Shown: positions 1 to 55,917 of the stretch, in pieces
How positions within the stretch are numbered: position 1 is the first letter of the stretch
Layout: every line of letters begins with the position of its first letter
Origin: an uncultured Lachnospiraceae bacterium
GTDB taxonomy: Bacteria; Bacillota; Clostridia; TANB77; CAG-508
Reading direction: 5' to 3'
Assembly: GCA_964497325.1 (NCBI GenBank)
Contig: CAZCCM010000001.1
Location: 10,103 to 74,102 of the forward strand
DNA: 64,000 bases
Position numbers and translations under genes: made by a program
Notes under the pieces: generated by a model
Seen by the model: the letters and a program-made list of their open reading frames with translations, nothing else
What the model was told of the DNA's origin: nothing
The model's database searches: none

Positions 1-3000
1 TATTGAAAAATACTAAATCTCCTGGTATAACTTCTGAATAATCCCTACCCTTTACTGGAGCATTTAAAAATTGATCAGCAGCAACACGATATAAATTAGG
101 CACAAGTCCAAGAGTTGTTTTGTATATATACCAAACTAATCCTGAACAATCAAAAGTATTTGGTCCTATAGCTCCCCATACATATGGCTTTCCAAGATGT
201 GAATATGCTTCTTCAATAACGCTTCTAGCTGCTCCTGATGCATCTCCATAATATCCTCCTCCAGTAGTTCCATAAAGTTTTAAACTAGCTTTATTTAAGA
301 AAGTAGTAATTTGTTTGTTTACGGCTAGTCCCCATTTGTCATCACAGTAATGTGGTGCTATTTCATTTACAAAATATCTATTATCACCCCAATAATAATC
401 TCCATGCATCAATTCAGCAAATTGTTCAAAAGCTGTATTATAAGTATCATATAAATCCCATGAAACAGCTCCAATACCATTTCCATTAGCATCTTTTATT
501 CCAGTATCATACATTATACCTCCACCATAGTTACCTTGTATGCTAAAAATATTATTATATTCTCCACCATACTGTTGTCTTATGTCAAAATCAAGGCCAT
601 AACCTGCATTTCCTCCTCCACATTCTATTACAGATACTGCTGCTGCATATATTGCATTTACTTCATACTTTTCTTGCATATTTAATAATTCTTGAGCATG
701 TTCTTGTAGTATTGGAAATCCTTCTAATATTTCTTTAAATAAGTCAACATCATCAATTATATTTGGTTCTCCATCTTCTGTTTTAGTATAATAGTCATCC
801 ATTATTTCTATATAAAAACCTGGAGTTAGTACAATGTATTCATCTACATTTTCTATAAAAGCTTTATCAACATCTCTCATTATAATTCTAAGATCCGATT
901 CTGTTGTTTTTCCAATTATTGTTCCTTCTTTTATATAGTCTCCTATATGATTTTCTGATCCAGATATTGAAATATAATTTGGCGCATCTACTTTTGCTTG
1001 TTCTATTGCTTCTGCTTCTTTTCTTGTTTCTTCATCTTGTATTTTCTTTAAATCACTACTTTTTATTTGTTTAACATAACTAGAGTTTTCTTTATTGTTA
1101 ACATCACTCGGTATTTCTACTTTTATACCTTCTATTGTAATTTTATTTCCTTTAATATATCTGCTGTCCTCTTTTTGTTTTCCATGTTTTTCTTTTCCTG
1201 ATATTACTCCCTTATATTCAGTTTCATAAAAGTCTTTATATGGATCTGCTTCTTTTGGCGCTGTTGCATCTATTGCTGATATTGTTATATAGCCTACATC
1301 TTTATATACTACTTTCTTTAATTCTCCATCTTTATCTGTGATAAGCCTTTCTATATCCTTTGTGCCAATTTCTTCTATCTTTCCTGTTACTGGTGAAAGA
1401 ACATTTATATCTTCTTCAAATCCTTCTCCATGAGTTTGTTTATTTTCTTTTATTTCCTCTTCATCATATATTTCTTCTAATGTTGCCTTAGAAGGTACAA
1501 ATACTCCATATCCCTCTGGATCTTGATGTATTTCTGCTGAAGGCCAAAATTTTGGTGTTTTATATTCACTTAAAGGCCACCTCAATACTCTTCTAACTGG
1601 ATCCCTCAAATCTTCCTTTTCAAAATATCCTAATTCAACATATAACTCTTTTAAATCTCTTAATATGTATTGGGCATCAATTGAGTTGCTTCCTTCTAAA
1701 ACTTCAAAAGCTGCTGTTAAATCTGTATCTGCTTCTACTAAAGATTTTAAAGAAGAATTTTGCTCACTTTTAGCTTTTTTTCTATCTTCATTATTTTCAT
1801 CTGCTCTTTCAACACTTCCATCATATTTATACCACTCTATATTAGTAAAAAGATTTTTTGTTCTTGCATTTGTCATTCCTCTTCTTCCTTCTTGTTTCTG
1901 TGTGGCAGTAATTGATTGATTTTCATGTATATACACGTAGTCAGAAAATCCTTCGTATCCATCTCCTTCTTCTGATTCCAATGGCTCGCCTAATCCATCA
2001 TTTTTTTCAGTTGTTTTTATTTCATATGCAGACCATTGATTTTCTTTTATAGTTTCCATTTCTGGTGTTAAAATCTTTTTTCCATCTTCTTCCGAAATAT
2101 TATATTTAGACCATTTTTCGCCTGTTAATAAATAGTAATCCTTATCTTCTAATACATACTCTTCCCCTTGATCTAAATAGAAATATACATCTCTAAACCA
2201 ATGATTTTCAGAATTTTTTATCATTGGAATATATGTCTTTACTTTACCTGTTTCTCCAAAAATCGTATTTAATTTGTTATAAAAATCTTCTGAATTATTT
2301 ACTTCAGCATTTTTTGAACTAACATCTGCAACAACATTATATAAGCCGTATTCATCTATAAAAGCATGATTTTTACCCCATCTACCTTTTTTAACAACTT
2401 CTCCTCTTAAGTCATTAATTTTACCATCTTTACCAAAATATACTGAGCTAAAATCATAATCTCCTTTTTTAACTTTATATTTAGTTGTAGTTTCACCATT
2501 TTTTGTTTTTTCTATTTCTTCCACTAAATTAAAAACTGGAGTTCCATCACTATTTAAAGAACCTGATTTATTTAAACTTGAAGAAGTTGATTTTTTAGGA
2601 CTGATCTGAACATATTGTCCACTTTCTGTTCTAAAAAAGGCTCTATGCTTTTCTTCTTCAGATTTTACTTCCTGTACTGGTATAAAATCATCCTCAGTAA
2701 AAATATATGGATTAGTATCATATTCTTTTCCAATTTCAATATCTCTATTTAACAAATATACTGTACCATTCACTGTTGTTGTTTCAGGAACTAAAAAATT
2801 AACTGTTGTTTTAATATCCGTTTTTAATAATAATATATTTAAGATTGGCTTTTTATAATATAAAACATCATTGTTATCTAATTGATCAAAAACATCTACA
2901 CTTTCTACCGTGCAAGCTTCATCTGTGTAAGCTTTTGTTCCTTTGGCTATTTCTCTAACTAAATCTGGTGATCTTGTACCTTGATGTAATGCAACAAAAA

Positions 3001-4027
3001 GTTCTAAAGGTAATCCATATTTTCCTGGCCATCCGTCCATCTGGAAAGTATATGTTCCTCCAAACATATTTCTTTTAATATATAAAGTTCCTAAATTTCT
3101 ATCTGTCTTTATAGCTTCTCTAAAAACACCTTGAAAAAAGTTTTCATCTGTTGCCAACTCATTGTCATCCCAAGTTCCCACTCTAAAGTTTAATAAACCT
3201 CTCATGTCTTGTTTAGTAAAAATACTTGAAATAATTGATTTATTTCTAATTCTATAAGTATATGCATCCATTCTTGCATATAATTCTATTAAATGTGGAA
3301 ATTTTTTGTCTTTTATTTTATCTGGTAAAGATATTATTTCACCATCTTCATTAAAATTGCTTGGCTCTAATTTTTCATTAATATATCCTTCTGCATATAA
3401 GTCATATCCCCTATTTTGAATAACGTTAGCAGTTCTAGAAAATTCTTTATCGCCTAGCATTTTATCTTCTCCAAAGAAATAATCTCCTAATTCTTTAAAA
3501 AAGCCTTTAACAAGCTCCCCTGTGCTACCTGGGATATAAATTAAAGACACTACAATTCCAACAAGCAAAACAACAGCTGCTATAGCAGCAAATGTCCCTA
3601 TAAATATCATTATTGAAGGACCTAAACCCATTCCTCCTAATAAAGCTCCTATCCCTTCGGCTCCTGCTCTAGTTGCCATTCGTTCTACACCTTCTCTTTT
3701 TAAAGCAGACAATGCAGCTTTATCTGCTTTTCCTCTAGTTGCTTTTTTACCTATTCCCGATGAAGAAAATTTTTGAGGAGATTCAGATATTGAAGATTTA
3801 GGTCTTGACGGTTTAGTTACTTTAGATTTAGGCTCAACAGATTTAGCATTTAAATCTTTTGAATCTTTTTTTGAGCTTTTATTCTCTTCAATTTTGTCTT
3901 TTATATTTTTAATATCGTCACCAATTTTTTGTGCATCTTGAACATTATCAAGAACGTCTCTTTTTTGAGAATCATCAGAACCAATAACCTCATCATTCTC
4001 AACATTGTTAGAATTATCATCCATTTA
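1..4027 (-). CDS. Giant membrane protein with a C-terminal NlpC/P60 peptidoglycan endopeptidase domain (CwlT/TcpG-like T4SS-associated hydrolase). The start codon is at 4027 and the 3' end is cut off by the window start, so more than 1340 aa are present.
   Basis: Minus-strand ORF with ATG at 4027-4025, 7 nt after AGGAGAAA, and no stop before position 1. The N-terminus is acidic/K-rich, followed by a TM segment (GIGALLGGMGLGPSIMIFIGTFAAIAAVVLLVGIVVSLIY). Reverse-complement translation of about 60-330 gives 'FDCSGLVWYIY' (NlpC/P60 catalytic Cys motif) and a downstream 'PGDLVFF'. The region before it, 'AAAVSVIECGGGNAGYGLDFD', may be a lysozyme-like domain (not confirmed). Confidence 0.6.
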
Positions 4028-8278: not shown

Positions 8279-9220
8279 TTATTCTGCTATAGGTACCGGT
8301 ACACTAAATTCTGCTAAAACATCATCAGCATTATAATTATTTGATTTATCTTTTTTTATAACCCTAACTGCTGAAAATACCAACGAATTAGGTAATTCTT
8401 TTTCATCAAAAAATCTTGCAAAACTTAAGTTTAATTTTAAAGTTTGATGTCCTGATAAATCAATTTTTTCTGTATAACTTAGTTCTGGCCTTGCATCTCC
8501 ACTTACTGTTAATTGAATTTCAGGTGTTTCAGTAGTAAATTCCTTTAAAACTATATCATTTTCTGTTCTATTAGTTACAGTTACATCATATATTTCTTCA
8601 GAATAAAAAGATATTTTTTGTTTTATTTCCACTCTTATATAGTCATTTTCAAAAAAAGAATTTAATGGGATTTTCCCTATATATCCAGCTACTGATAAAT
8701 TTTTCTTTCCTGACGCACTTTCATTTATAGCCATTTTAAGATCTATAAAAGAATAATCAGAATATGTTAATCCTGTCGCTAAAAAATCTTCAAACACTTT
8801 AACTTGATATATATATGTTGACCCAACTTTTGAATATGGGATAACCTCATATCTTGAATCTTTAGGAAAATTAGTTTTTGCATATTTACTAAATTCTTCA
8901 ACATCGCCAAAGACTGTTGTTTTACAATCATCTGATAACATATTATATGCATCCTCATATTCTCCCTTACTAGATTTTTCTGCAAAATTAACTATAAGTG
9001 CTTCACTTTCTATAAAAACTTTTGAAGGAACTTTTGATTCAGGTTGTAAAACTAATGCAAAAGGATCTTTAGTTACAATAGGCTCCTCCTTTTTATATAT
9101 GCTCAAAAGATAATTGAATAATAATACTATAATAATAATTAATACCACTATAAATATTTTTAATTTATGTTTTTGAAAAAACTCACTTATTTTTATTTTT
9201 ATATTACCAGATTCTTTCAA
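8279..9220 (-). CDS. Hypothetical membrane-anchored extracytoplasmic protein (possible VirB8/TcpC-like T4SS component)
   Basis: 313 aa with an N-terminal TM (IFIVVLIIIIVLLFNYLLSIY) and a soluble domain. It is co-directional with the T4SS-like array across short gaps. The VirB8/TcpC assignment rests on architecture only. Confidence 0.35.
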   Translation of the reverse strand: MKESGNIKIKISEFFQKHKLKIFIVVLIIIIVLLFNYLLSIYKKEEPIVTKDPFALVLQPESKVPSKVFIESEALIVNFAEKSSKGEYEDAYNMLSDDCKTTVFGDVEEFSKYAKTNFPKDSRYEVIPYSKVGSTYIYQVKVFEDFLATGLTYSDYSFIDLKMAINESASGKKNLSVAGYIGKIPLNSFFENDYIRVEIKQKISFYSEEIYDVTVTNRTENDIVLKEFTTETPEIQLTVSGDARPELSYTEKIDLSGHQTLKLNLSFARFFDEKELPNSLVFSAVRVIKKDKSNNYNADDVLAEFSVPVPIAE

Positions 9221-9275
9221 AATTTCCTCCTATTTTATTCTGTATTCTATATTTTATTTTTATATTATTGTCTAC

Positions 9276-9851
9276 TTATTTTCTAGAAAAAGAAAACTTA
9301 TAATCATTTAATCCATATTCTTCAAAAATAAATTTCATTTCCGTTTTACTTCTAGAGTCTTTAATGCTTTTTATATCTATTACATAAATATACAAACTTC
9401 CTACTCTTTCAAAATTTTTAATTACATAACTTGCATCTTCAGGAAATTCTCCTTTAAAGTAATCTTCCATAACTTCTTGTTTAGGAAAAAAGTTTTCTTT
9501 AAATTTATCATCTAATCTTGCATAAATTTCACTAAATTTTTTATTTTCAATATTATCAAAAATATCACCAAGATACACTTTCATTCTTTTCATTTCACTC
9601 TTATCTTTTACTTCCTCAACAGTATCTTCAAAATCACTTTGATTAAAATTTTCTGCATATTCAGGAAGTTCAACATTAGAATTATCTAATTTTTCTTTAG
9701 TTTTTAAAGTTATAATTATAATTACAATTAGAGCTATAATAATTATAATTACAAAAGCAATTATAGTAATTTTTTCGACTGAATTTTTCTTTTTCTTTTT
9801 TTCTTTTTTTTCTTTAAAATTATCATATGTTTCTTTACTTATATTAATCAT
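9276..9851 (-). CDS. Hypothetical membrane-anchored protein
   Basis: The ORF-track start is GTG at 9857. The likelier start is ATG at 9851-9849, 5 nt after AGGAG. The N-terminus has a K-rich region then a TM (ITIIAFVIIIIIALIVIIIITL). Confidence 0.4.
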   Translation of the reverse strand: MINISKETYDNFKEKKEKKKKKNSVEKITIIAFVIIIIIALIVIIIITLKTKEKLDNSNVELPEYAENFNQSDFEDTVEEVKDKSEMKRMKVYLGDIFDNIENKKFSEIYARLDDKFKENFFPKQEVMEDYFKGEFPEDASYVIKNFERVGSLYIYVIDIKSIKDSRSKTEMKFIFEEYGLNDYKFSFSRK

Positions 9852-9900
9852 TTTCACTCCTACTTTTTTTATATGTTTTATTAAAAGCCCTACATATTAT

Positions 9901-9935
9901 ATTAATTAATTAATTATTTATTTATTTATTTATTT
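9901..9935. repeat. Simple-sequence repeats (ATTA)x3-(ATTT)x4
   Basis: 'attaattaattaattatttatttatttattt' lies in the 85-bp intergenic region upstream of the 9851 gene. Confidence 0.6.
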
Positions 9936-9936
9936 T

Positions 9937-12870
9937 TTAATTATCCGGTTTTATTGAATTGTCTTCTTTAGAATTGATATTTTCATTATTATTTTCTCCA
10001 GTATTGATATTTACTGGATTAATTTCTCCTGAGCTAATATTTTCATTATTATTTTCTCCAGTATTGATATTTCCTTGATTAATTTCTCCTGAACTAATAT
10101 TTTCATTGTTATTTCCTTCAATATTAAAATTTTCACTTGATATTCCAGGATTGTCTATATCCGGATTGTTCATTAATTCTTCCAATTTATCTTTAAACCT
10201 TTTTACTTCTTTTTCTTTTTCTTTCAATTTACCATTTTCTAAAGAAATTCTTTCCTTTTCTAAACCCTTCAACCTTTTTTCTAAATCTTCTATAATATTT
10301 GTATTTTCAGATTTTTTTGCATCTTCAAGAGCTATTTTTACTATATTATAATTATCTTTTAAATTTGTATTTTCTTTTTCTATTTTTTCTAACTCATCCT
10401 CAGCTTTTCTTAATTTATCTTTTATTTTATTAAAGTTTTCTTGAATTTTAGGATTATCTACTTTGTAATCAGTTTCGCTAGAATTTTTTCCAAATTCAGG
10501 TTTATTAAGCTTGTACTCGCCATCATTAGTGTCTTTTCCAAATTCAGGATTTTTAATCTCATCCTCTAGCCCCTTAAATAAATCATCTAAGTCTTCCATG
10601 TTATGTTGTGATTCTGGAGCAGTTCTTTCACCTTGTTGTGAGACAGGATTATTTAATGTTTTTTCATTAATATCTCCATTTTCTTCACTGTATTCTTTTA
10701 ATGCCATGGCTACTTCTGAAGTTTTTAGAACATTTTGAACATTGTCATAGTCATATGTTAACTTCTTAATATCACTTTCTAAACCATTATATTGCTCCAT
10801 ATCTTCCATTTGTTTCTTTTCCATAATCATACTTCCAAAATTTCTACCTTCTAATGTATCAAAACTCTCTCCTAACATAGTTCCTTCTTTTGGAAGTTTT
10901 CCATTCATTAAACTTTCTTCTAAACGATATGCCATTACTGTTGCTTGAGCTTTTGTTAAACTCTTATCACTCATTACTTTTTCAAGATATTTTTTTCTTG
11001 CTTGTTCATATTCTTTTAATAATTTCCCCGAATTTGATTTATCTCCAACCATTCTGAACCAGCTTTGCATTTGATCTATTCCTTCTTGAGTTTCTAACTC
11101 TGGAACCTCTCCATTTATCATTTGATTTATTCCATATGAATTAATAGCTTCTTTTGCAGCATTTTTCGTATTTAATATATATCTATCTTTTTTATTCATT
11201 TTACCATATTTTTCATTTCTTTTACGTCTAGATTCTCGTCTTTTATCAAGCATTTCTCCTACATCTTTTGATGAATTTATTAATGCATAAGAAGTTAAAG
11301 CATCACCACTAGCAATTGACCATATTGCTCCACCTACAGTAGCTACATTCCTAATTAAATTTTTTGAATATAAATTATTTAATTTATTAAATACACTTTT
11401 TGGTTTACTTGTCTCTTTTAACTCAGGTATTTCATTTATTTTTTCATCTATTACTTTTGGATCAAGTTTAATGTTTTGCGTATTTTTAGTATCTTCTACA
11501 TTTGTATCAAAACTACCCACATTCTCTGCTGTATTTATATCTAAATCATTATTTGTTTCTATATTTTGAGATGTTGGTTCTTTAAGTTTAGGTGGTAATT
11601 TTGTGCTTTCTGTACTTCTTTCAAATAAACGAGGTTTTTCTTGTTTTTCAGCACTTCTTTTTAATCTTTCAGATGTCTTATCTAACATTCTATTAACCAT
11701 TGTTGCTTTTGCTAACTGTCCACCTGCTGGTAATTTTTCACCATCTGTTATATTAAATATTTGTCTAATTATTTTTTCACCTTCACCAATGAATCCTAAA
11801 CTCATAATAGCTATAATTGTACCAGGAATTGTAGAAGTGAATGTACCAAAAATGAAGTCTCCTCCTTCACCAACATCTACTGATATTTTAAAAGCAAGTG
11901 TAAAAAATACCGAAAAAATTAAAGCATGAAAGGTTTGTATAAAAACATTAAATATAAAGACATGCATCCAGGTATTTAATGCTTGCGATTTGTTATCTGC
12001 AATTTTATCTATTGAGTAAGTTATTGTAATTAAAGGTGAAATCATAATTAAAAATGCAATTTTAATCATTCTTTTTATATATATAAAAGTATATTTAAAT
12101 GTTTGTATTGTAATAGTTGCTAATATTATAGCAGATGAAAGTTGTCTAATAATATTTAAAGGTGTTAAAATATAACCCATCAGTTTTAAAATAGTAGCAG
12201 CAAAATCCATTCCATCTAAATTTGCCATAGATGCTTTTTCAATAATTCTAACTAAAATATTATTTCCAGTTATAGATGCTACAATTATTATACCTAATAA
12301 AGCAAGCAAAGCTAATGAAATCAACCAATTTACAAACATTTTATAATATTTAGCTCTTGATTGACCTGTGCTTGCTATTACTGCTCTAATAGAAATGTAT
12401 ATTAAAACGCCTAATAAAATTACTACAGAAATTCCTGATAAAGTTACAAACCATTTAGCAATTGCTGTTCTTAATGATAAGATATCTGATCCTCCTGTTG
12501 AAAAATCAAAAAAATCTATACTTAATATAGGTATTCTATTATAAAAAATATCTGCTGGTGTAACTATAAAACTTGTATTTCCAAGCAACTTAAATAATAA
12601 AGATAATATTAAGTAAGGAACAACAACAAATAATAGCCCTCCTATTGCTACAGGAATCCATAAGAATATTCCTAACAATCCATTTAACATTCCCATTATG
12701 ATGTCACCAGCTGTCTTTTGTACTCCTGAATTGTTTTCTAATTCAACCTCTGAATCTGATGCAAAACTACTATTATATGTCCCTACTAATGTTAAAATAA
12801 ACAAAAACATTATTATTATTTTTAATATTTTTTTTAAATTATATTTAAATAAATTTTTCTTTTTACTCAT
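9937..12870 (-). CDS. VirB6/TrbL-like polytopic T4SS membrane protein, paralog 1, with a long hydrophilic C-terminal tail
   Basis: 977 aa with a signal/TM, more than 8 TM helices, and the conserved motif 'ISPLITITYSIDKIADNKSQALNTWMHVFIFNVFIQTFHALIF' shared with the three neighbouring paralogs. The C-terminal ~550 aa is a charged coiled-coil ending in 20-aa repeats. Confidence 0.55.
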   Translation of the reverse strand: MSKKKNLFKYNLKKILKIIIMFLFILTLVGTYNSSFASDSEVELENNSGVQKTAGDIIMGMLNGLLGIFLWIPVAIGGLLFVVVPYLILSLLFKLLGNTSFIVTPADIFYNRIPILSIDFFDFSTGGSDILSLRTAIAKWFVTLSGISVVILLGVLIYISIRAVIASTGQSRAKYYKMFVNWLISLALLALLGIIIVASITGNNILVRIIEKASMANLDGMDFAATILKLMGYILTPLNIIRQLSSAIILATITIQTFKYTFIYIKRMIKIAFLIMISPLITITYSIDKIADNKSQALNTWMHVFIFNVFIQTFHALIFSVFFTLAFKISVDVGEGGDFIFGTFTSTIPGTIIAIMSLGFIGEGEKIIRQIFNITDGEKLPAGGQLAKATMVNRMLDKTSERLKRSAEKQEKPRLFERSTESTKLPPKLKEPTSQNIETNNDLDINTAENVGSFDTNVEDTKNTQNIKLDPKVIDEKINEIPELKETSKPKSVFNKLNNLYSKNLIRNVATVGGAIWSIASGDALTSYALINSSKDVGEMLDKRRESRRKRNEKYGKMNKKDRYILNTKNAAKEAINSYGINQMINGEVPELETQEGIDQMQSWFRMVGDKSNSGKLLKEYEQARKKYLEKVMSDKSLTKAQATVMAYRLEESLMNGKLPKEGTMLGESFDTLEGRNFGSMIMEKKQMEDMEQYNGLESDIKKLTYDYDNVQNVLKTSEVAMALKEYSEENGDINEKTLNNPVSQQGERTAPESQHNMEDLDDLFKGLEDEIKNPEFGKDTNDGEYKLNKPEFGKNSSETDYKVDNPKIQENFNKIKDKLRKAEDELEKIEKENTNLKDNYNIVKIALEDAKKSENTNIIEDLEKRLKGLEKERISLENGKLKEKEKEVKRFKDKLEELMNNPDIDNPGISSENFNIEGNNNENISSGEINQGNINTGENNNENISSGEINPVNINTGENNNENINSKEDNSIKPDN
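9974..10150. repeat. In-frame 60-bp tandem repeat x~3 in the 3' end of the 9937-12870 gene
   Basis: The 60-nt unit ('tttcattattattttctccagtattgatattt...') occurs at 9981, 10041 and 10101. It encodes 'GENNNENISSGEINxxNINT' x2.5. Confidence 0.7.
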
Positions 12871-12968
12871 TTCTTACCTTTATCTCTATTATTCTTACTT
12901 TTATCTTCATTTTTTTGTAACTTATTATATCTTATATCTTTTTTTATTAAGATTAAACTATAAATACA

Positions 12969-15182
12969 TTATAATTTTCTAGATCTTTTAACTACTTCTT
13001 TATATCTTATCTTTTCCCCAGCAACAGTAGTATTCTTTTCAAAATCGTCTATTTTATCTTTAGTAATTAAATCTAAATATTTATGCATTAAAGTCCTATC
13101 TATATCTGATAAAACATCATAATCAAAATCTCTTTTATTTAAAATATCATTTTGTAATTTTGCTACATGTTCCTTAGCTTCAAACTCAGACTTTCCGGTT
13201 TTTGTTTGAAATTCTGCAATAGCTTCCTTTTTTGTGTTTTTATAAGATGCTTCAAGTTTTTCTCTTGAAGTAGATCCAATGGTACTGGCATATTCTTCAA
13301 GAAAATCTGTTTTAAATTCTTGTTGAAAAGCTACATTTTGATTATCTAATTCTTCTGCAGAAGTCTTTTCTTCTTTTTCTGAAGAATTACTACTTACTTC
13401 TTCTCCTAATTTATCTTTTCTTGTTCTAATAGCTTTAAATTGCTCAGCTTCATTATTTAAGTTTTTTTCATATACAGATTTTGAATATGGAGTACATCCT
13501 TTTTTATGTTTCATTTTATTTCTTTTAGTTTCTACATTCTTTATGGCCCAATCAGCTCCTTTATATCCCATAGTTCCAGCTTCTACCATTCCAACTTGTG
13601 GTGTAGCATGTGAAGCAGTCGCAGTAATCCCTGCAACAGTTGTCTTTAATGCTGTTTTACCTATTTTTTTACCCATTCTCTTAAATGTTTGCTTATTTAA
13701 GTTTTTAGCTTTAGTAATTGTATACTCTTTCATTGATGTTCCTAACCCCTTAAGTGGTCTTTTGTCATAGATTTTTTCAAGATTTTCTCTTCTTTTTGCT
13801 TGCTTCTTTTCTTTTTCCAATATGTCTTTTTCTGTAAGTTTTTTCTTACCTTCTTTTTGTTTATCTTCCTCTTTTTTATCTTTTTCTTTATCCTTAATTT
13901 TATCTTTAAGATCTTCTTTTGAACTATCTAATATTTTATTGTCTTTTTTATTTATATTTTCTGATGTTTGTGTTTTTAAAGGAATCTTCTTTTTACTCTC
14001 AGCTTTATCTATTGTTTTTAAAATTGGTGCTTTTTTAACAAAATTACTTCCAACTTTTTTAAACTTATTTGCTTGGCTAAGCATTCCTAATAATAAAGCC
14101 GTATTTCCTTGAACTTTATCTGCGGATATTCCAAATAATGAACCAATTATTGTTTCAGAATCCCATAAAAATTTAAGTCCAGAAACCAATAATATCATTG
14201 CAGGAATAGCAGCTGTTCCCTTTGAACCTGCTGCTTCTACTATAATAGATATAAAAGATACATATGTTAAAGCATGAATTACTTGTATTAAAACTGTATA
14301 AACAAACATTTTTGACCAAGCAAGTAAACTTTTTGCACTACCAGATCTTCTATTAACAGCATAGGTAACTGCAACTAAAGGAGAAATTACTATTAAAAAT
14401 GAAACCTTTAGAAGCCTTTTAAAATAGTATAGAAAGAAAACTAAGCCCATGGCTGAAATTATTATATACAAAATTAAAGATTGAGTTCCAATAAGAACAT
14501 TAGTATTAAAAATACCTTTCCATAATTCCATTGTTAATGAATCATCCCATGCACCTGCAACCGCTTCTTTATAAAAAGCTGAAACAATAGTATTATTTAA
14601 TAAAATAATAGCTATTATAAAAATCCCCATTCCAAAAAGAACTAATAATCCTAAAAGATAATCCTTTATCATCTTTTTTGTTTCCGCTTCCTTCTTAGGG
14701 TCTTGTTTTAAAGTTCTTAAAACTGAATTTATTGCAATATATATAAGCACTAATATTTCTACGACTATTGCTACTCCAAATAAAATGACAAACCATTTGG
14801 CAACATTTTCATATAATGCATTTGCTGTAGCATCAACTTTTGATCCAGTAAAAACATTTAGACTTGTTAACTCATATTGATTAAAAATAAATGTTTCAAT
14901 AGTTATAGCTGCAGCCTGTCCTCCAATTAAAAGTCCTATTATAAATGAAATTGTTATAAGAACAAGTGCTATAATAGCCCTAAGCAACATTAGAATAATA
15001 GATATAAATCCTGGTAATTCAACTTTATCATCATCAGATGCAAAAACGCTAGAAGAATAACCTATAACAAGAATACTTATTGCTAGCATTATAAACATAA
15101 TTTTCAAAATTGTTTTTTGTCTTTTCTTTATAATTTTATTTCCTCCTAACTCTTTTATGTTATTATTTTTCTTTTTCTCCAA
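12969..15182 (-). CDS. VirB6/TrbL-like polytopic T4SS membrane protein, paralog 2, with a K/E-rich C-terminal tail
   Basis: 737 aa with the shared motifs 'VAKWFVILFGVAIVV' and 'ISPLVAVTYAVNRRSGSAKSLLAWSKMFVYTVLIQVIHALTY'. The annotated start is a TTG overlapping the upstream gene by 20 nt, so the true start is uncertain (the first in-frame ATG lies inside the signal-peptide region). Confidence 0.55.
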   Translation of the reverse strand: MEKKKNNNIKELGGNKIIKKRQKTILKIMFIMLAISILVIGYSSSVFASDDDKVELPGFISIILMLLRAIIALVLITISFIIGLLIGGQAAAITIETFIFNQYELTSLNVFTGSKVDATANALYENVAKWFVILFGVAIVVEILVLIYIAINSVLRTLKQDPKKEAETKKMIKDYLLGLLVLFGMGIFIIAIILLNNTIVSAFYKEAVAGAWDDSLTMELWKGIFNTNVLIGTQSLILYIIISAMGLVFFLYYFKRLLKVSFLIVISPLVAVTYAVNRRSGSAKSLLAWSKMFVYTVLIQVIHALTYVSFISIIVEAAGSKGTAAIPAMILLVSGLKFLWDSETIIGSLFGISADKVQGNTALLLGMLSQANKFKKVGSNFVKKAPILKTIDKAESKKKIPLKTQTSENINKKDNKILDSSKEDLKDKIKDKEKDKKEEDKQKEGKKKLTEKDILEKEKKQAKRRENLEKIYDKRPLKGLGTSMKEYTITKAKNLNKQTFKRMGKKIGKTALKTTVAGITATASHATPQVGMVEAGTMGYKGADWAIKNVETKRNKMKHKKGCTPYSKSVYEKNLNNEAEQFKAIRTRKDKLGEEVSSNSSEKEEKTSAEELDNQNVAFQQEFKTDFLEEYASTIGSTSREKLEASYKNTKKEAIAEFQTKTGKSEFEAKEHVAKLQNDILNKRDFDYDVLSDIDRTLMHKYLDLITKDKIDDFEKNTTVAGEKIRYKEVVKRSRKL

Positions 15183-18100
15183 GATTCTTTACTTGCGGAT
15201 TTTCTTCTAATTGCTTCTTTTCTGCTTTTGCTCTATTATCTGTTTTCTTATTTTTAGACTGTGATTTATTATTATTTTTGTTTTCTTTTTGTGATTTATT
15301 ATTATTTTTGTTTTCTTTTTGTGATTTATTATTTGTTTGTTTGTTTTCTTTTTCCGATTTATTATTTGTTTGTTTATTTTCTTTTTTCGATTTATTATTT
15401 GTTTGTTTATTTTCTTTTTCTGTTTTATTATTAATTTGTTTATTTTCTGTCTTAGCTCTGTCGTTTGTTTTCTTGTTTTTAGGCTGTGAGCTTTTGTTTC
15501 TTTTGTTTTCTGTGTTTTTTTGAAAATTTTTAATTGTTTTTTTATTTTCTTTATTTATTTTTATTTCTACTTTATCATTTACTACATTAGCTTGAACAAA
15601 ATGTGGTTTACCTTTTTTTCGTTGAAAAGCTTTACTATTAAACTGGAAGTTTCCTAATAATCCATAATAAAGACTTTTTGGTATTGAAGAATCCACCAAA
15701 GCTATTGGGAAAAACAATATTCCTGCAGTAGCTTTTAAGCCTGTTTTTCCTAATTTTTTAAAATCTTCAATTGTTTTTTTATATTCTTCTTTTCCCTTTT
15801 CTCCTTTACCCATTTTGAATTCTTTAATTACAGATTTTTTAAATTTATCATAGTTACCTTCTGTTAGTTTAATCTTTTTCTCATCAAAATCAAAATAATA
15901 TTCTCTGCCTTCTATTCTACGTCTACCCTTATCATCAACAGTCCCCATATTCTTTACAACTCTTTTAAATCTATTTGAAGTATATTGTGCTTTTCTAACC
16001 CCTTTAACTATTTTATTAGTTTTAATCATTTTTGATCTTTCTAATAATCTAATTCTATCTTTTTCTTCTTCTGTTAAAGGAAGATTTCCAGAAGGATCCA
16101 TTCTATCTTTAATTTCCTCATCTGAATAGCCTTTTAGTTTTAAGACTTCTTCTATTTGTTTATTTCTTTTCTTTTGTCTATTAATCTCCCCCATGGTTTC
16201 TGCAGGAAGTCCTGCCTCAACACGTTTTTTTCTTATTTTTTCTTCCATGCTTTCTTTTAAATTATATGCTCCTCTAAATGCTGTTGCACCAACTGTCCCT
16301 GCTACTGCTTTGATTGGTTTTATTACTGCAGATGAAACCTTTTTTATTGCTCCTCCTTCTAGATTCTTTTTATTAAATAACGAACCCACTGCTAAACCTG
16401 TAGCATAATCTTTTAATGTTGATTTTTCTAAAACATTATCTAGAGTACTATGTCTCTTAGCTCCTCTAACATTAAATATCTGTCTTATTATTTTATCTGC
16501 TTCTAATATAAACTTTAATAAAATAAACATTATAATAAATCCTACTATACTTTTAGATGCTAATGCATATGTTATTGGAATAAAAATTAAATAAACAAAA
16601 GCATGAATAGATTGTATTAAAATATTAAATGTATATTCTTTAATCCACTCTATTCTAACATTAGATTTGCCTTTTAAAGTTTTTATAATTAAATCATATA
16701 TCATTAAAAGTGGGCCTAATAGAGAAAGGAAAAACACTACTAAAAATCTTTTTATGTACATAAGAACAAACTTCAACGTATACCAAATTAAAACAATATA
16801 CATTATTGTAGCTGGTATACCAACCGTTAATTTCAAATTATAAGCTCTTGTTCTTAAAGTTTCCAATATAGTATAATTTCTACCCATATCTGTTTCAATC
16901 AATGATCCTCCCACTGATTCAGCAGCTGTATCTGCAAATTTTGATAATAAATCTATAATAGTTGTATTTGCTTGTAAAATAACTATCATATATATCAATA
17001 TAAGTAGCATTTCTACAAAAGCTTTTGCCCAACTTATTGCTCTTTCTTTATATGTAGCTTTTTTCATACCAACAGATTCAATCACTGCCATAATAGCATT
17101 AATTATTAATGCCATTAACAATAATAATAATCCTAAACCGTATAGTGTTATAAAAATTGAAGCAAAATAATCTTTTATAATTAACAAAGGTCCATCTTCT
17201 AATTCAATTTCTTCTTCATAATCCTCACCATATAGTTCTTCCATCTCTAATCCTGTTGGACTATATTTTAAAAGTCTTTTTCTTACAGAATCCTTACTTT
17301 CAAAAAAGTTTACGTTTAAAGCTTCTACCCTATTAAATATTATGTTTTCTATGTTTACAGTTCTTTTTGAATCAGTATAAAATGCAGCATTATTTTTTCT
17401 ATAACTTCCTGAACCCACATTTTTTACTGTCAATGAATCAAAAGCTTCTGATAATAAAACTTCAGCTAATATTCCAAAACCTAAAACTCCTAATTTAAAT
17501 ACGGAAGCAGCTAATCCTAATAAATAATCAGTAATTTCAAACAAAAATTTAACAATCCACTTAAAAAAATTAGTTTTACCTTTCGCAGAATGTCCTGCTG
17601 AAACTCCTTTATAAAAAAAATCTCCTGATGATGACATTTTTTTAAAATCTGATAAAAGCATATTACTTTTTGTAGATGAGCTGGAACTAGCTAATCCTGT
17701 TGATATTCCTGGAGTAGTAACATCAACATAATCTAAAGGATTAACAGCTTTTCCATTATTTTGAATTTCAAAATGAAGATGTGGACCAGTTGAAAGTGTT
17801 CCCGTTCCACCTACATAGCCTACTATTTGTCCAATTTCAACTTTGTCTCCTACTTTTAAGTCTGACGGTCTCATCATATGTACAACCAACCAACTATATC
17901 CATCTTCTCTTTGAACTTTAAGCATATTTCCACTTTCTATACTCGCTGCTGAATAGACAACTGTCCCTGAAGAAGCAGCTAAAATAGGTGTTCCTTCTGA
18001 AGCACCTAAATCAACTCCTGTATGAAAATCAGAATAAGGACTTCCATTAAGGATAAAAGATCTAGGTCCAAATCCTGAAGTTATTGGTTTAGGCACTTCC

Positions 18101-18357
18101 AAAGGATTTGCCCAAGCAGTACTACTTGCTTTGCTCGAACTGTTTTTGTCTTTACTGTTTTCTTTATCTTTATTATTTTCTTTCTCTTTATTATCTGATT
18201 CTTCTGTTTCTTCTTCATTATTAAAAACATTTTCATTAAAATATTCACTAAAAGCTAAAGATTCTATAGGATACATAAGTAATATAATTACTAATAAAAC
18301 AAATGCTATTAGCTTAATTCCGATTTCTATTAAATTTTGCTTAACTTTTATCTTCAT
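15163..18357 (-). CDS. Fusion protein: N-terminal secreted M23 (LytM-type) metallopeptidase domain, then a VirB6-like polytopic membrane domain and a repetitive K/N-rich C-terminal tail
   Basis: 1064 aa. The M23 signature is 'FHTGVDLGASEGTPILAASSGTVVY...GPHLHFEIQ'. Downstream motifs 'ALNVNFFESKDS' and 'GPLLMIYDLIIKTLKGKSNVRIEWIKEYTFNILIQSIHAFVY' are shared with the VirB6-like paralogs. Confidence 0.65.
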   Translation of the reverse strand: MKIKVKQNLIEIGIKLIAFVLLVIILLMYPIESLAFSEYFNENVFNNEEETEESDNKEKENNKDKENSKDKNSSSKASSTAWANPLEVPKPITSGFGPRSFILNGSPYSDFHTGVDLGASEGTPILAASSGTVVYSAASIESGNMLKVQREDGYSWLVVHMMRPSDLKVGDKVEIGQIVGYVGGTGTLSTGPHLHFEIQNNGKAVNPLDYVDVTTPGISTGLASSSSSTKSNMLLSDFKKMSSSGDFFYKGVSAGHSAKGKTNFFKWIVKFLFEITDYLLGLAASVFKLGVLGFGILAEVLLSEAFDSLTVKNVGSGSYRKNNAAFYTDSKRTVNIENIIFNRVEALNVNFFESKDSVRKRLLKYSPTGLEMEELYGEDYEEEIELEDGPLLIIKDYFASIFITLYGLGLLLLLMALIINAIMAVIESVGMKKATYKERAISWAKAFVEMLLILIYMIVILQANTTIIDLLSKFADTAAESVGGSLIETDMGRNYTILETLRTRAYNLKLTVGIPATIMYIVLIWYTLKFVLMYIKRFLVVFFLSLLGPLLMIYDLIIKTLKGKSNVRIEWIKEYTFNILIQSIHAFVYLIFIPITYALASKSIVGFIIMFILLKFILEADKIIRQIFNVRGAKRHSTLDNVLEKSTLKDYATGLAVGSLFNKKNLEGGAIKKVSSAVIKPIKAVAGTVGATAFRGAYNLKESMEEKIRKKRVEAGLPAETMGEINRQKKRNKQIEEVLKLKGYSDEEIKDRMDPSGNLPLTEEEKDRIRLLERSKMIKTNKIVKGVRKAQYTSNRFKRVVKNMGTVDDKGRRRIEGREYYFDFDEKKIKLTEGNYDKFKKSVIKEFKMGKGEKGKEEYKKTIEDFKKLGKTGLKATAGILFFPIALVDSSIPKSLYYGLLGNFQFNSKAFQRKKGKPHFVQANVVNDKVEIKINKENKKTIKNFQKNTENKRNKSSQPKNKKTNDRAKTENKQINNKTEKENKQTNNKSKKENKQTNNKSEKENKQTNNKSQKENKNNNKSQKENKNNNKSQSKNKKTDNRAKAEKKQLEENPQVKNLGEKEK
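15230..15470. repeat. In-frame degenerate 30-36 bp tandem repeats x~7 in the 3' tail of the M23/VirB6-like gene
   Basis: Units 'gtgatttattattatttttgttttcttttt' at 15261-15290 and 15291-15320 are identical, and degenerate copies follow to about 15430. They encode 'KENKQTNNKS(x)' repeats. Confidence 0.75.
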
Positions 18358-18397
18358 ATTTAAAATTTTTTCTTTATATAATATAAAGTCTTCCTTT

Positions 18398-19696
18398 TTA
18401 TATTACTTTAATTTTTACATCATCAAAATATAAAAAACCATCTTTTATATATTTTAATTCTAAGTTGCCTTCTCCTATATATACATCTACAACAGAACCT
18501 GTATTAATATTAATTTTAAAGATTCCTTCATCAGCTATAGAATAAAATACATATTCTTTAGTTAATAAAAGATTATCTGCAACTTTTGCTGTATTTATAT
18601 TAAAATTTTTATTTCCTATCTTAGAAACAATAGAAACATCACTAAAAGTATAATTTGTAGAATTTAAATTAAAATATACAGTATATTTGTCCATTTTTTC
18701 TAACACTTTATATTCTTTTTCTTCTTCTCTCGCTTTCTTTAAATAGCTTTCCTCAACATTAATATTTTTATAGATATCATTATCACTATATATTTTTTCA
18801 GGCCATGAAAAATTTAATTTTAATTGTTCTTCTGCAATTCTTTCAATTTCTTCTTTCATAACTAAATTAGTATTCTTATAATTTACATTTTTAAACTTTT
18901 TTAAATTATCTACAGAAAATTCCTTGTTTTCATTATAATAATTTGAATAAAGATAAATACCATTTTCATTGTCATATTCTTTAAAATATAACCTTATTCC
19001 TAAATCTGCATAAATTAACTCTAATCCATCGCTATCATAAGAATATTTTGTATAAGATGGGTATACCATTGTAGTATTAGAAATAAATTTTTTTAAATCA
19101 CCAGATTGCAAATATATTTTATAATATTGCCAAAAAACCTCTAAATCTTCATTATTTCTTAAATATGCAGAAGCTTGATGGTTTTTAGTATCAAAAATTA
19201 TATAATAATCTTTAGTTTTATAAGCTAATAAATTATTTTCATTATAATTAGGACTACCTAAATTCATTATAATACTGTCACTATCAGTTTGAACATTTAT
19301 GCCTTTTATTATGTTAGACTTATATTCATCAAAAAATACCACATTTATTATTCTATCAAAAGATTTTTTTATTTTTATTTGTCTTTGTGGAAAAACATAA
19401 AAGCCATCATAAATATAATATTCTCCAAAACTTTTTAATTCCATTTTAGGATTTTTTATAATATTTAATAATTCTACAGAAGCAACTGATAAATTTATTT
19501 CCCTCTCATTTATAGTTACATATGACTCAATTTTTGTATCAGTACTTTCTGTTTTTCCTTGATCTCCCCAAGGGATATTTGTATCTTCTTGAATTTTTGG
19601 CTTTGCAGAAAATAATGAAAAGAGTACATATATAATAAATACCCCTGCAATTACAATAAAAAATATAAACTTCTTTTTATTTTTTAAATCAAACAT
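18398..19696 (-). CDS. Hypothetical secreted/membrane-anchored protein in the T4SS-like array
   Basis: 432 aa with an N-terminal hydrophobic segment (FIFFIVIAGVFIIYVLFSLFSA). Its start overlaps the upstream stop (TAATG). Confidence 0.4.
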   Translation of the reverse strand: MFDLKNKKKFIFFIVIAGVFIIYVLFSLFSAKPKIQEDTNIPWGDQGKTESTDTKIESYVTINEREINLSVASVELLNIIKNPKMELKSFGEYYIYDGFYVFPQRQIKIKKSFDRIINVVFFDEYKSNIIKGINVQTDSDSIIMNLGSPNYNENNLLAYKTKDYYIIFDTKNHQASAYLRNNEDLEVFWQYYKIYLQSGDLKKFISNTTMVYPSYTKYSYDSDGLELIYADLGIRLYFKEYDNENGIYLYSNYYNENKEFSVDNLKKFKNVNYKNTNLVMKEEIERIAEEQLKLNFSWPEKIYSDNDIYKNINVEESYLKKAREEEKEYKVLEKMDKYTVYFNLNSTNYTFSDVSIVSKIGNKNFNINTAKVADNLLLTKEYVFYSIADEGIFKININTGSVVDVYIGEGNLELKYIKDGFLYFDDVKIKVI

Positions 19697-43152: not shown

Positions 43153-46100
43153 TTATTTATTATTTTCGTCTTCATTTGGTAAAACTCTATTTTTTTGTAT
43201 AGCATTCATTAACACTTTTATTAACACTGTAACTCCCGCTATTCCTATCATTATAATTAGCATTGTATTTAAAGTTAATCTTAATGTTTTTTGAGACTTA
43301 CTTAAACCTGTAGGAGGTGTTATAGTTACTAACATTGCTAAACCTGTATCTGGTTCTAAGTTTTCAGCATCAAATGTTTCTGATAATCTAGTATTAATAT
43401 TTCCTGGAGTTGAAGATGTAGATCTTCTTCCATTATCTGTTGAATATTCTACTATTTCAGCTATATTATCAAAACTTAGGTCTTCATCTGCTTGTTGTGA
43501 TGATAATCTCTTAGTTGCTATCTTTGAACTTATTTGATATGGTGAAATCTTTTCTTTGTCAGTTCCTCGTGCTATTGCTGTAGCGTATTCATAATACGGT
43601 ACTAATCCTTCATTCATCTTCTCATTCATGTATATATTTGAGCCTCCAGTTTTAAAGTATGACTTTCCGTCTGGATCTGATATTAAGCTTGTTTCTAGTT
43701 TATAAGTTTTATTGCCTGAATCATCATATACAGCGATCAAAGAATCTAGTTCTTCAATATTTTTAATTTGTGCCCATCCTTCGTCAGTTTGTAAATCATC
43801 TTTAACTGCACTGTTGTCTACATAATCTAATACTTTATTTACATATGTTTTAGAAACTGTTTCCTCATATAGTTTATAATCTCCTATCTTAGAAGTTTCT
43901 GTATAATCTCCTGTGTAATATCCTTTTCCAAAGAATCTACCAAATCCATATTTATCTGGATCTATTTCATGATTTAACTTTGAATATTTTTCTCCTGATC
44001 CTGCTATTGTACCAACGTATTTAGAAACTTTATCATCTTTTCTAGCATCTTCTATTGATTGTGTTTTAAAGTTTTCCTGTATTGTTGCTCTATCTACTTC
44101 TCCAAGATTGTATGCTCTAACCTCATATTCCATTTCAATATTCATATCTGATAATAATTGTTTATCAAAATTTAAATGTATATATCCATTTGATTTTCTT
44201 ATTGCAGGGTCTTCTATATTAATATTTTCCCATCCTCTTGCATTTGTATATATACCACTTTCTGATTTATTTTCTTCCCAATATGGTTTTTTAGTTGCAT
44301 ATATAATTGTATTTAATGGATTTACTTTATCTCCATTTACAGAATCTGCTTTAATTTCTGTCTTAACTTTTAAAATATATTCACCTATATTGTATCCATT
44401 TTGAGTTTTTCTTTTAGTATCATATTTTTTATCTTCTTTTTCTGCTTTTAATACATTTTTATCTTCATTTGGTATTACTATGTTTTCAGCATCATAAGTT
44501 GTTTCATATTCAGCATCAACTAACTTTGTACCTTCTGAACTTTTTAATGTTAATTTTGTAATTTGTTTATCTAAAACTATTTTTGTTTTTGGTCTTTCTT
44601 CTAAAGCAATATTTACATTATTGTATGTGTGAGCTTCATTTGGTACTTCTACATCTTTCTTTCCATCATTACTTTTAGTAATTCCTGGTAATGCAAAGAC
44701 ATCTGCAAATTTATTATATAATATATTTTCTTTAGATACAGATCCGTAGTAATTTATTCCAAAGTTAATTACTGGTGTTTCTGCCGTCATATTAGCAGTT
44801 GATTCTATAACTTTTCTTGTTTCATCATCAAACTTATCATGTCCTATATTTAAAATTTCTAATCCACCGCCAATTTTTGCATTTATATTTTTTGAATTTT
44901 GATATAGCTTGTATCTGCTGTATTCACTATCTCTTCCATAAGAGTAATTTTCTTTTGGAGTTGATGGAAGCCATGTTTCATTTAAAGTCTCTTTATTTCC
45001 ACCATCATATATTGAAACTTTAAAATCTTGACCATTATATACTTGTGGTGATTTATCTCTATTTTCTATATCTACTATTTTAGTTGTTTCGATTGTATCT
45101 TTATTAAGTATTCCTATAGATTCTGTAATATCATTTCCTGATATTATATATGGTAATTGTACAACAAAGTTTCCTGCTGGAATATTTTTAAACTTGTATT
45201 TTCCATCTTCACCCGTTCTCATATATGATTGAAATCCAATTAAGTCTCTTAAACTACTAATTTTAATTCCTGTACCTTCAATCTTATTTTCCCATACATA
45301 TGGAATATCTACATAATTAGTTTCATCTTTCAATACTTTATTATCAAAACCTTGCTCCATTTTATATTCAGTACTTAAATCAACCGCTCTAATAGAAACC
45401 CTTTCTTCTAAAGCAACTATCTTATTTGGTATTGGTTTTTCTTCATCTTTATTATATATACCATCACCCATATTTACTCTAGCAATCTGATTGTTTCTTT
45501 TTTCTTCCCAAACCATACCTGAAACTTCTCTTGGTGCTTCTGTTTCTAATTTAATAGTTATCATTGGAGCAACTGAAGAATCATCTTCTAAGTATGAAAA
45601 GTCTTGTTTTATATTTCCATCAAATCCAGCTTTTGTAAAGTTTAATCGGCCTAAATTAATATTTGCTGGTGCAGAATCTCTGTCTACTTTTCCTGTTACT
45701 TTTCCTGTGTATTTATTATATGTTGCATATCCTGCAATTTCTGTTAAGTGATGTTTATTTCCTAATCTAATAGAATTTTCTACTTTATCACCATTTTCTG
45801 CAAAAAGCTTGCCTTTATTAACTTTAAAGTTAGTTACTACTTCTAACCTTCTAGCTGAAGGTAATATAATATCCATATCACCATACTTATCATCTAAAGT
45901 AGTTAACATTCCAATTCCTTTATTTGTTTCTTTTTTTGTCCATATAAATGGTTCAGATTTAGTTAGCCCTGGAATTTTTTCATATTCAGTTTCTGCTTTA
46001 ACATCATCAAAGTTTCTTTTAATATTTGTATCTAAAGTTACAATTCTATATTCTGGTGTTCCTATAACCACATTACTTCCCGATATTGCAGCTTTACCTG

Positions 46101-50421: not shown

Positions 50422-50422
50422 A

Positions 50423-55501: not shown

Positions 55502-55917
55502 TTGAACCTCCATTCAATTTTCTTTAATGTAATATTAATTTTTGCATAACCAATTATTTATATCAAACCGCTTTTTACTATATATATATTAAAAACATTT
55601 TTTTATAATTTTAAAACCATTCTTTTCTTTAATAAATATGCTTTACAAGGCTTGCAGGTAATTTATGTAACATTTTAACAACATTTTTTTTAATATTTTA
55701 AAAATTTCAGCTTAAATATACAATTTTATTTTTTTATTTTTTTTAATAGTTTTTATTTTTTTTGTTTTTTTTATAATTTTATTTTGTTTGATATTTTTCA
55801 GCTTTATATTTTTATATTTTTATTTTTTTATTTTTTTTAAATATTTTTTTATAAAAAAATAAAGAACAAGTTTTATTTTTAAATTATTCTAAATACCCTT
55901 AAATCAATAATTTAAAC

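Follow-up and report, generated by a model that had tools for sequence, protein, structure and literature searches.

A predicted VirB6-like membrane protein with an N-terminal M23 peptidase domain in a chromosomal type IV secretion-like cluster of an uncultured Lachnospiraceae bacterium

We analyzed a 64,000-nucleotide stretch of DNA (hereafter the window) from an uncultured Lachnospiraceae bacterium (assembly GCA_964497325.1, contig CAZCCM010000001.1, positions 10,103 to 74,102), centering on a gene whose 1064-aa product joins an N-terminal M23 (LytM-type) metallopeptidase domain to a polytopic membrane core. On balance, we consider it rather probable that this gene encodes an "extended" VirB6-like subunit with an exported M23 zinc endopeptidase head, belonging to a chromosomal apparatus that resembles a type IV secretion system (T4SS). 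Such a fusion is not described for the studied Gram-positive systems, yet it is a common natural variant in its own uncharacterised clade.

The M23 head and its recurrence among relatives

The gene is a single unbroken open reading frame (ORF) on the minus strand (Table 1). Two other assemblies of the same organism carry it; the L015 copy is 100% identical over the first 2968 nt, and the L014 copy is 99.3% identical over 2993 nt. The L014 gene region (14400-18000) contains a 100-N assembly gap past the aligned 2993 nt, which explains why no M23 gene is called there. We ruled out an assembly or frameshift artefact, as three assemblies show the ORF uninterrupted and distant relatives share the architecture.

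The protein begins with a basic n-region (MKIKVKQN) followed by 20 hydrophobic residues and ESLA/FS, an N-terminus that, in alignment, is shared by every ortholog and by 15 distant fused members. Behind it lie a low-complexity linker, which includes an 18-nt repeat at 18145-18194 (TRF), and the M23 domain, the sole enzyme domain of the protein. The match to PF01551 scores 92.5 bits (cutoff 28.7; E 1.9e-26) and covers 95 of 96 profile positions. The catalytic set of five residues is complete (H112, D116, H160, H193 and H195, in the pattern H-x3-D / H / H-x-H) and aligns with that of solved enzymes, and the best sequence matches of the domain, Pgp3, lysostaphin and ShyA among them, are active peptidases. 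Judged from its sequence, the domain is apparently active. Given its N-terminal place behind a Sec-type signal sequence and its intact active site, it most likely lies outside the cell. The original prediction had proposed a secreted N-terminal head with metal-binding His and Asp residues; those residues all survive alignment in the window protein, and the predicted location is most likely correct.

We found the same architecture well beyond this genome, as the original prediction had suggested checking. The order of M23 domain and then core occurs in eight of nine full-length orthologs (P0001-P0007 and P0009) and in a distant relative, P0010. Among 152 family sequences, mostly best matches, 15 further 50%-identity clusters carry an N-terminal M23 domain behind a canonical signal peptide, and 14 of these 15 keep both HxxxD and HxH. 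Furthermore, the head itself is exchanged: P0118 and P0119 have an NlpC/P60 domain at the M23 position, and P0148 has M23 plus CHAP. Interchangeable heads of this kind argue for a wall-hydrolase role over an accidental fusion. A search of genome contigs with alignment A1 found three loci in metagenome-assembled genomes (MAGs).

Across 11 aligned sequences (the window protein, nine orthologs and P0010), the five-residue site is intact in eight; the window protein apart, it is kept in 7 of 10, namely six of the nine orthologs and P0010. Several observations weigh against an active cutting domain. Orthologs P0002 and P0003 lack four or all five of the catalytic residues, ortholog P0008 has no M23 domain, and M23 is the least conserved region of the protein, with a mean pairwise identity of 40% versus 66% for the core. 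Moreover, a regulatory role, and not that of the active hydrolase, is reported for the PrgK LytM domain (PMC12857230).

The partial loss of residues and domain, together with the PrgK report, would fit a mainly non-catalytic M23 head that either binds peptidoglycan, regulates another hydrolase or docks a partner, with the wall cut by a different enzyme. SpoIIQ, EnvC/NlpD and, reportedly, the PrgK LytM domain offer precedents, and a candidate cutter near the cluster, a multi-domain protein with glucosaminidase and NlpC/P60 regions encoded at 2-4024, adds to the case. On the other side stand the intact residues in the window protein, in 7 of 10 aligned relatives and, as HxxxD plus HxH, in nearly all distant fused members, as well as the active peptidases among the best matches. 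Non-catalytic LytM factors, including EnvC, NlpD and Bacillus subtilis SpoIIQ, typically lack the catalytic residues, which also counts against a non-catalytic head here. We therefore regard that explanation as unlikely.

The ORF at 2-4024 (minus strand, >1341 aa) runs off the start of the window. It has a C-terminal NlpC/P60 domain, and its glucosaminidase-like match is weak (E 0.003, below the Pfam cutoff). It represents a second large wall hydrolase, about 4-5 kb from the end of the cluster.

Two other identities were tried and rejected. The protein is not SpoIIQ, since only the M23 domain matches, no SpoIIIA context is present and the protein is polytopic, not bitopic; nor is it a phage tape-measure M23 fusion, since the many tape-measure matches involve the M23 domain only and no phage genes are present.

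The polytopic core and the VirB6 question

A Ser-rich linker joins the M23 domain to a core with 6-8 long hydrophobic helices at aa 264-627, delineated by Kyte-Doolittle hydropathy and AlphaFold. The core is marked by the motifs IFNRVEALNVNFF, KKATYKER..W, YIKRFL..FLSLLGPL, W.KEYTFNILIQSIHAFVY and LKFILEADKIIRQIFN. Its core-only AlphaFold model reached a predicted local distance difference test (pLDDT) score of 73.6 and a predicted template-modeling (pTM) score of 0.72. Structural comparison with two programs and on two independent models gave TrwI (PDB 7o3v) as the top match, the alignments spanning 217-220 of 261 residues, and DotA (PDB 9ngy), a second VirB6-class protein, was also among the matches. 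Gene position points in the same direction: family members occupy slots downstream of VirB3-VirB4, as Orf15 does in Tn916. Family members also match transmembrane families that flank VirB4 in Mollicutes integrative and conjugative elements (ICEs), namely NF045889 and NF045848, at sub-threshold values (best E 1.5e-5 and 7.5e-7); NF045889 is a neighbour of the Mollicutes ICE VirB4.

Sequence methods, meanwhile, give no support for a VirB6 assignment. The core has no Pfam match even at E<=1, the TrbL model (PF04610) included, and a sequence profile search of the PDB with the core was empty. With hhalign, a 14-sequence profile compared with PrgH and Orf15 and a 162-sequence profile compared with TrwI, PrgH and Orf15 each gave a probability of 0.1. 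The structural values are themselves low, as Foldseek ranks TrwI first at a non-significant E of 0.089 and TM-scores range from 0.28 to 0.39. Hydropathy and the positive-inside rule also yield no single consistent core topology: if all eight hydrophobic segments span the membrane once each, at least one of the strongly basic loops at aa 428-446 and 626-700 would have to lie outside the cytoplasm, so we set no helix count.

On the basis of the structural match and the gene slot, and despite the silent sequence methods, we accept with moderate confidence that the core is VirB6-like in fold and role, outside the VirB6 sequence family. The original prediction of a VirB6-like channel subunit thus stands for fold, moderately, and for gene slot, and lacks a sequence link to any named VirB6 family.

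The uniformly negative comparisons with VirB6, TrbL, PrgH and Orf15, together with the weak Foldseek and TM-score values, could instead indicate an independent T4SS-associated membrane family that resembles TrwI and DotA superficially, the true VirB6 being absent or encoded by another gene. We think this improbable. TrwI ranks first with both programs and both models and DotA appears as well, the cluster offers no other polytopic candidate, and a family member follows directly after VirB4, like Orf15 in Tn916. In addition, accepted VirB6 proteins are described as extremely divergent in sequence (PMC12102498).

C-terminal to the core lies a 424-aa basic tail, with 100 K+R versus 53 D+E in residues 701-1064, by which the VirB6-like protein resembles "extended VirB6" proteins. 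A 33-nt tandem repeat in this tail encodes KENKQTNNKSx units; orthologs lack it, and it is strain-specific.

Inside the core, a helical hairpin with the basic KKATYKER loop draws weak, recurrent matches to PF18895 (T4SS_pilin). It corresponds to aa ~395-470 of the M23 protein (~16948-17175), with equivalents in the paralogs at 12969-15182 and 9937-12870. The matches fall on the window's other paralogs, one A1 member and eight distant family members, and the M23 protein itself gives none. The hairpin could be a pilin-like element within the platform or reflect mere hydrophobic similarity.

The window protein belongs to a tandem set of four VirB6-like paralogs, and one of the four is frameshifted. 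The three large proteins share a core of about 300 aa (BLASTP E 8e-20, 3e-26 and 3e-32), and the start of paralog 2 overlaps the M23 gene by 20 nt. Paralog 4 changes frame at aa 187/188 (tblastn with the L001 ortholog), where a 1-nt insertion near 20376 reads …CTTTTATTG-C-GGAGTAATG…. The split sequence is identical in the independent assemblies L014 and L015, and because the insertion is shared, we interpret paralog 4 as a real pseudogene or a two-piece gene and not as a sequencing error.

The core also defines a large family. An exhaustive hidden Markov model (HMM) search with the core returned 4454 clusters (50% identity) at E<=1e-3 and 2833 at E<=1e-30. The family size rests on this search; a word-index profile search with the core alignment gave only three proteins. 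Lengths range from 311 to 1971 aa among 150 listed clusters, no name is attached to any of the 10 family clusters checked, and none of 34 family proteins scanned matches Pfam above threshold in the core.

The type IV secretion-like cluster and its chromosomal setting

The window has a GC content of about 25%, with almost every gene on the minus strand. The type IV secretion-like cluster occupies 8.3-26.5 kb (8279-26478), and its components are listed in Table 1.

Table 1. Features of the M23/VirB6-like fusion gene and of the surrounding cluster (window coordinates)
Feature	Coordinates	Strand	Basis
Whole gene, 1064-aa M23/VirB6-like fusion	15163..18357	-	ORF list; L014, L015; orthologs P0001-P0009
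aa 1-35, predicted Sec signal peptide or signal anchor	18253..18357	-	Hydropathy, charge, conservation
aa 36-84, low-complexity acidic/lysine-rich linker	18106..18252	-	Sequence; TRF; pLDDT <50
aa 85-212, M23/LytM metallopeptidase domain	17722..18105	-	Pfam envelope aa 111-207 = 17737-18027
aa 213-262, Ser-rich linker from M23 domain to membrane core	17572..17721	-	pLDDT <50; alignment A1
aa 263-640, polytopic helical core, VirB6-like fold	16438..17571	-	
aa 641-1064, basic tail (424 aa), probably cytoplasmic	15166..16437	-	Charge counts; alignment A1
33-nt tandem repeat, 5.8 copies, in the tail	15262..15448	-	TRF
Paralog 2, 737 aa, polytopic, no enzyme domain	12969..15182	-	BLASTP E 8e-20 vs M23 protein; weak NF045889 match
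Paralog 3, 977 aa, polytopic, no enzyme domain	9937..12870	-	BLASTP E 3e-26, 3e-32
Paralog 4, small (412-aa type), split into ORFs of 238 + 224 aa	19696..20929	-	tblastn
Cluster protein, 432 aa, N-terminal transmembrane helix	18398..19696	-	Syntenic in all loci
VirB4-like ATPase, 650 aa	20922..22874	-	Pfam P-loop_TraG/DUF87
TraC-like/TrsD-like protein, 394 aa, VirB4 N-terminal domain equivalent	22890..24074	-	
PrgI/VirB3-like protein, 110 aa	24076..24408	-	PF12666 E 1.1e-4, sub-cutoff; same position in related loci
Pilin-like two-helix protein, 141 aa	24411..24836	-	PF18895 E 6.7e-6
Three VirB2-like pilin genes	25190-25570, 25604-25975, 26104-26478	+	PF18895/PF04956 on first
Two conserved cluster-end genes, 313 aa + 193 aa	8279..9857	-	Syntenic in L001, L003, L010

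The pilin array is supported by L014 and L015, where genes of the same position and length (126, 123 and 124 aa) match PF18895/PF04956. The equivalent of the VirB4 N-terminal domain appears as a separate gene: orthologs of the TraC/TrsD-like protein match PF26593, and NCBIfam gives a match to the N-terminal part of the VirB4_plasma model. The ATPase matches the NCBIfam CD1110 family (E 1.6e-58) and the Mbov_0397 family (E 2.6e-56). Most of 120 listed clusters of Clostridia-type metagenome sequences share 68-70% identity with it, so that its conservation far exceeds that of the VirB6-like proteins, and Clostridia and Lachnospiraceae MAGs supply the closest named VirB4s among the matches listed. 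Pfam, NCBIfam and PDB searches with the 432-aa protein, which might have a VirB8-like role, returned no match, and Pfam and NCBIfam gave no significant family for the two cluster-end proteins.

L001, L010, L012 and L013 have the same layout, and L008 and L011 have it in part; family members are co-encoded with VirB4, VirB3 and VirB2 homologs, in the same layout in six unrelated loci. Housekeeping genes flank the cluster, with MscL, SpoU, Mfd and NrdD on one side and DnaJ, PBP and MscS on the other, and MurD, RuvA, MreCD and PBP2 farther out. Orthologous loci keep the cluster between the same housekeeping genes though their M23 proteins are only 48-57% identical, and flanks are likewise shared by genomes whose VirB6-like proteins have about 50-57% identity. 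Because the flanks are fixed in such divergent genomes, we interpret the cluster as a vertically inherited chromosomal system and not an ICE. Among the scanned ORFs of the 64-kb window, none has a relaxase, coupling protein (VirD4/TcpA/FtsK-type) or integrase domain.

Elsewhere in the window, two giant overlapping minus-strand ORFs are probably surface proteins: 43153-50442 (2429 aa, no Pfam match) and 50423-55513 (1696 aa), the latter with SdrD B-like and CarboxypepD_reg-like repeats.

Proposed mechanism, known relatives and significance

We propose that the Sec-type signal preceding the M23 domain would place that domain outside the membrane, where the flexible linker of about 50 residues may keep it tethered to the helical core. 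Given the intact H-x3-D / H / H-x-H site, the head would then cut peptide cross-links in the cell's own thick peptidoglycan. As a component of the VirB6-like platform, M23 would cut only at the spot where that platform assembles. This platform may be a pentamer that nucleates a pilin fibre or conduit, as R388 TrwI and pCF10 PrgH suggest by analogy. The basic C-terminal tail is predicted from its charge to be cytoplasmic and could contact VirB4 or substrate. The fusion may thereby play the part of the separate bitopic VirB1-like hydrolase seen elsewhere (PrgK, TraG, CwlT/Orf14, TcpG). The tethering of cleavage to the channel, as the original prediction put it, would follow from this arrangement.

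The alternative target is a neighbour's wall. If the head acted on a partner cell, the apparatus would serve contact-dependent attachment to, feeding on or killing of other bacteria, and four features are compatible with that: a chromosomal location without relaxase or type IV coupling protein (T4CP) and with a composition like that of the Patescibacteria epibiotic T4SS (PMC12102498); an ectodomain that evolves faster than the core (40% versus 66% identity); the swapping of hydrolase heads among relatives; and the giant surface-type proteins encoded nearby. However, a linker of about 50 residues to the producer's membrane would hardly permit reach beyond the cell's own wall, no immunity-like gene was recognised beside the M23 gene, the gene set for wall synthesis is complete, and the window gives no hint of an epibiotic lifestyle. 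We consider this the least probable of the explanations weighed here, and return to an own-wall hydrolase carried by a VirB6-like platform.

Several known systems share parts of this design. The fold of the core resembles that of R388 TrwI and of DotA from Legionella Dot/Icm, with no detectable sequence similarity. Unlike these, the window protein adds an N-terminal enzyme domain and the long basic tail, it has four paralogs instead of one, and its host is assigned to a monoderm lineage. Tn916 Orf15, ICEBs1 ConG, pCW3 TcpH and the shorter PrgH of pCF10 likewise combine a polytopic N-terminal part with a long hydrophilic C-terminal extension; VirB6 proteins of MPF_FA systems are described as "extended", at 700-900 aa (PMC12857230). 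These proteins, however, lack a hydrolase domain, and the hydrolase there is encoded by the next, separate gene. Orf15 and PrgH, the two members included in our comparison, showed no sequence similarity to the window protein.

According to a 2025 review (PMC12857230), every VirB1 homolog known from Gram-positive systems is a membrane-anchored protein in its own right. PrgK (LytM+muramidase+CHAP), pIP501 TraG, Orf14/CwlT and TcpG are bitopic with a single anchor helix, whereas the anchor of the window protein is a 378-aa polytopic VirB6-like core plus the 424-aa tail. The fusion protein would fall within the review's definition of VirB1-like proteins (a membrane-anchored, extracellular hydrolase domain encoded in a T4SS operon; PMC12857230), and outside the VirB1-like classes ALPHA, BETA and DELTA, whose members are separate bitopic proteins.

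A relative with unfused parts occurs on the 300-kb replicon of Clostridioides difficile BI1 (NC_017177, 203.5-210 kb). It shares a pilin-like protein, PrgI, a split VirB4 (322+640 aa; 30% identity to the window ATPase) and an 882-aa protein that is a member of the core family (hhalign probability 87-95%). Its hydrolase, in contrast, is a separate gene just downstream (1066 aa, one transmembrane helix, SLT+M23+NlpC/P60), and it has one VirB6-like gene versus four in the window. Together with the review, this cluster bears out the original statement that the hydrolase of monoderm T4SSs is usually a separate protein. The C. difficile cluster is followed (L018, 196.8-199.3 kb) by a pair resembling a cyclic-oligonucleotide-based antiphage signaling system (CBASS), a SAVED-domain protein and a DncV-like cGAS nucleotidyltransferase.

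Patescibacteria have a chromosomal T4SS with the same component set, namely VirB2-like pilin arrays (PF18895/PF04956), PrgI/VirB3, TrsD-like protein, VirB4 and VirB6 (PMC12102498). In that system most clusters lack a relaxase and T4CP near virB4; it is essential for epibiotic growth, and peptidase and lysozyme genes by virB4 are essential in S. epibionticum. The passages of that study consulted here report no VirB6-hydrolase fusion, and the study reported no non-Patescibacteria members in its VirB4 clade (PMC12102498). The window cluster, by contrast, belongs to Clostridia- and Lachnospiraceae-labelled genomes, and the likeness is one of component set. A third parallel is the Rickettsiales rvh system, a chromosomal non-conjugative T4SS with several tandem extended VirB6 paralogs, like the window (PMC2653234, PMC7648143). 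Its hosts are diderm alphaproteobacteria, and the likeness is one of organization. To our knowledge, no hydrolase fusion is known among the rvh VirB6 proteins.

Taken further, the system might represent a distinct, widespread and undescribed class of non-conjugative T4SS or pilus machine in gut Clostridia, a Firmicute counterpart or source of the Patescibacteria T4SS, built on a mixed VirB6-like platform with an exchangeable wall-boring head. We put this forward tentatively, as a possibility that we judge doubtful at present. If it is true, the class would have the hydrolase-VirB6 fusion as its signature, and the fusion would give direct genetic evidence for wall cutting at the VirB6 platform.

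For Gram-positive type IV machines, passage through a wall 30-100 nm thick and the place where the hydrolase acts relative to the translocon are open questions (PMC12857230). A natural fusion of hydrolase and VirB6-like protein provides guilt-by-fusion evidence that both work at the same place, evidence that is stronger because the heads are interchangeable and because, in the C. difficile relative, the two parts are separate neighbouring genes. Somewhat more interesting than the fusion itself are its surroundings, a conserved, non-conjugative T4SS-like system with a large VirB6-like family that lacks annotation. A conserved VirB4, four VirB6-like paralogs, pilin arrays and the absence of nearby conjugation genes suggest an important uncharacterised surface machine in gut anaerobes, and the fusion gives a tractable test of the link between wall cutting and machine assembly.

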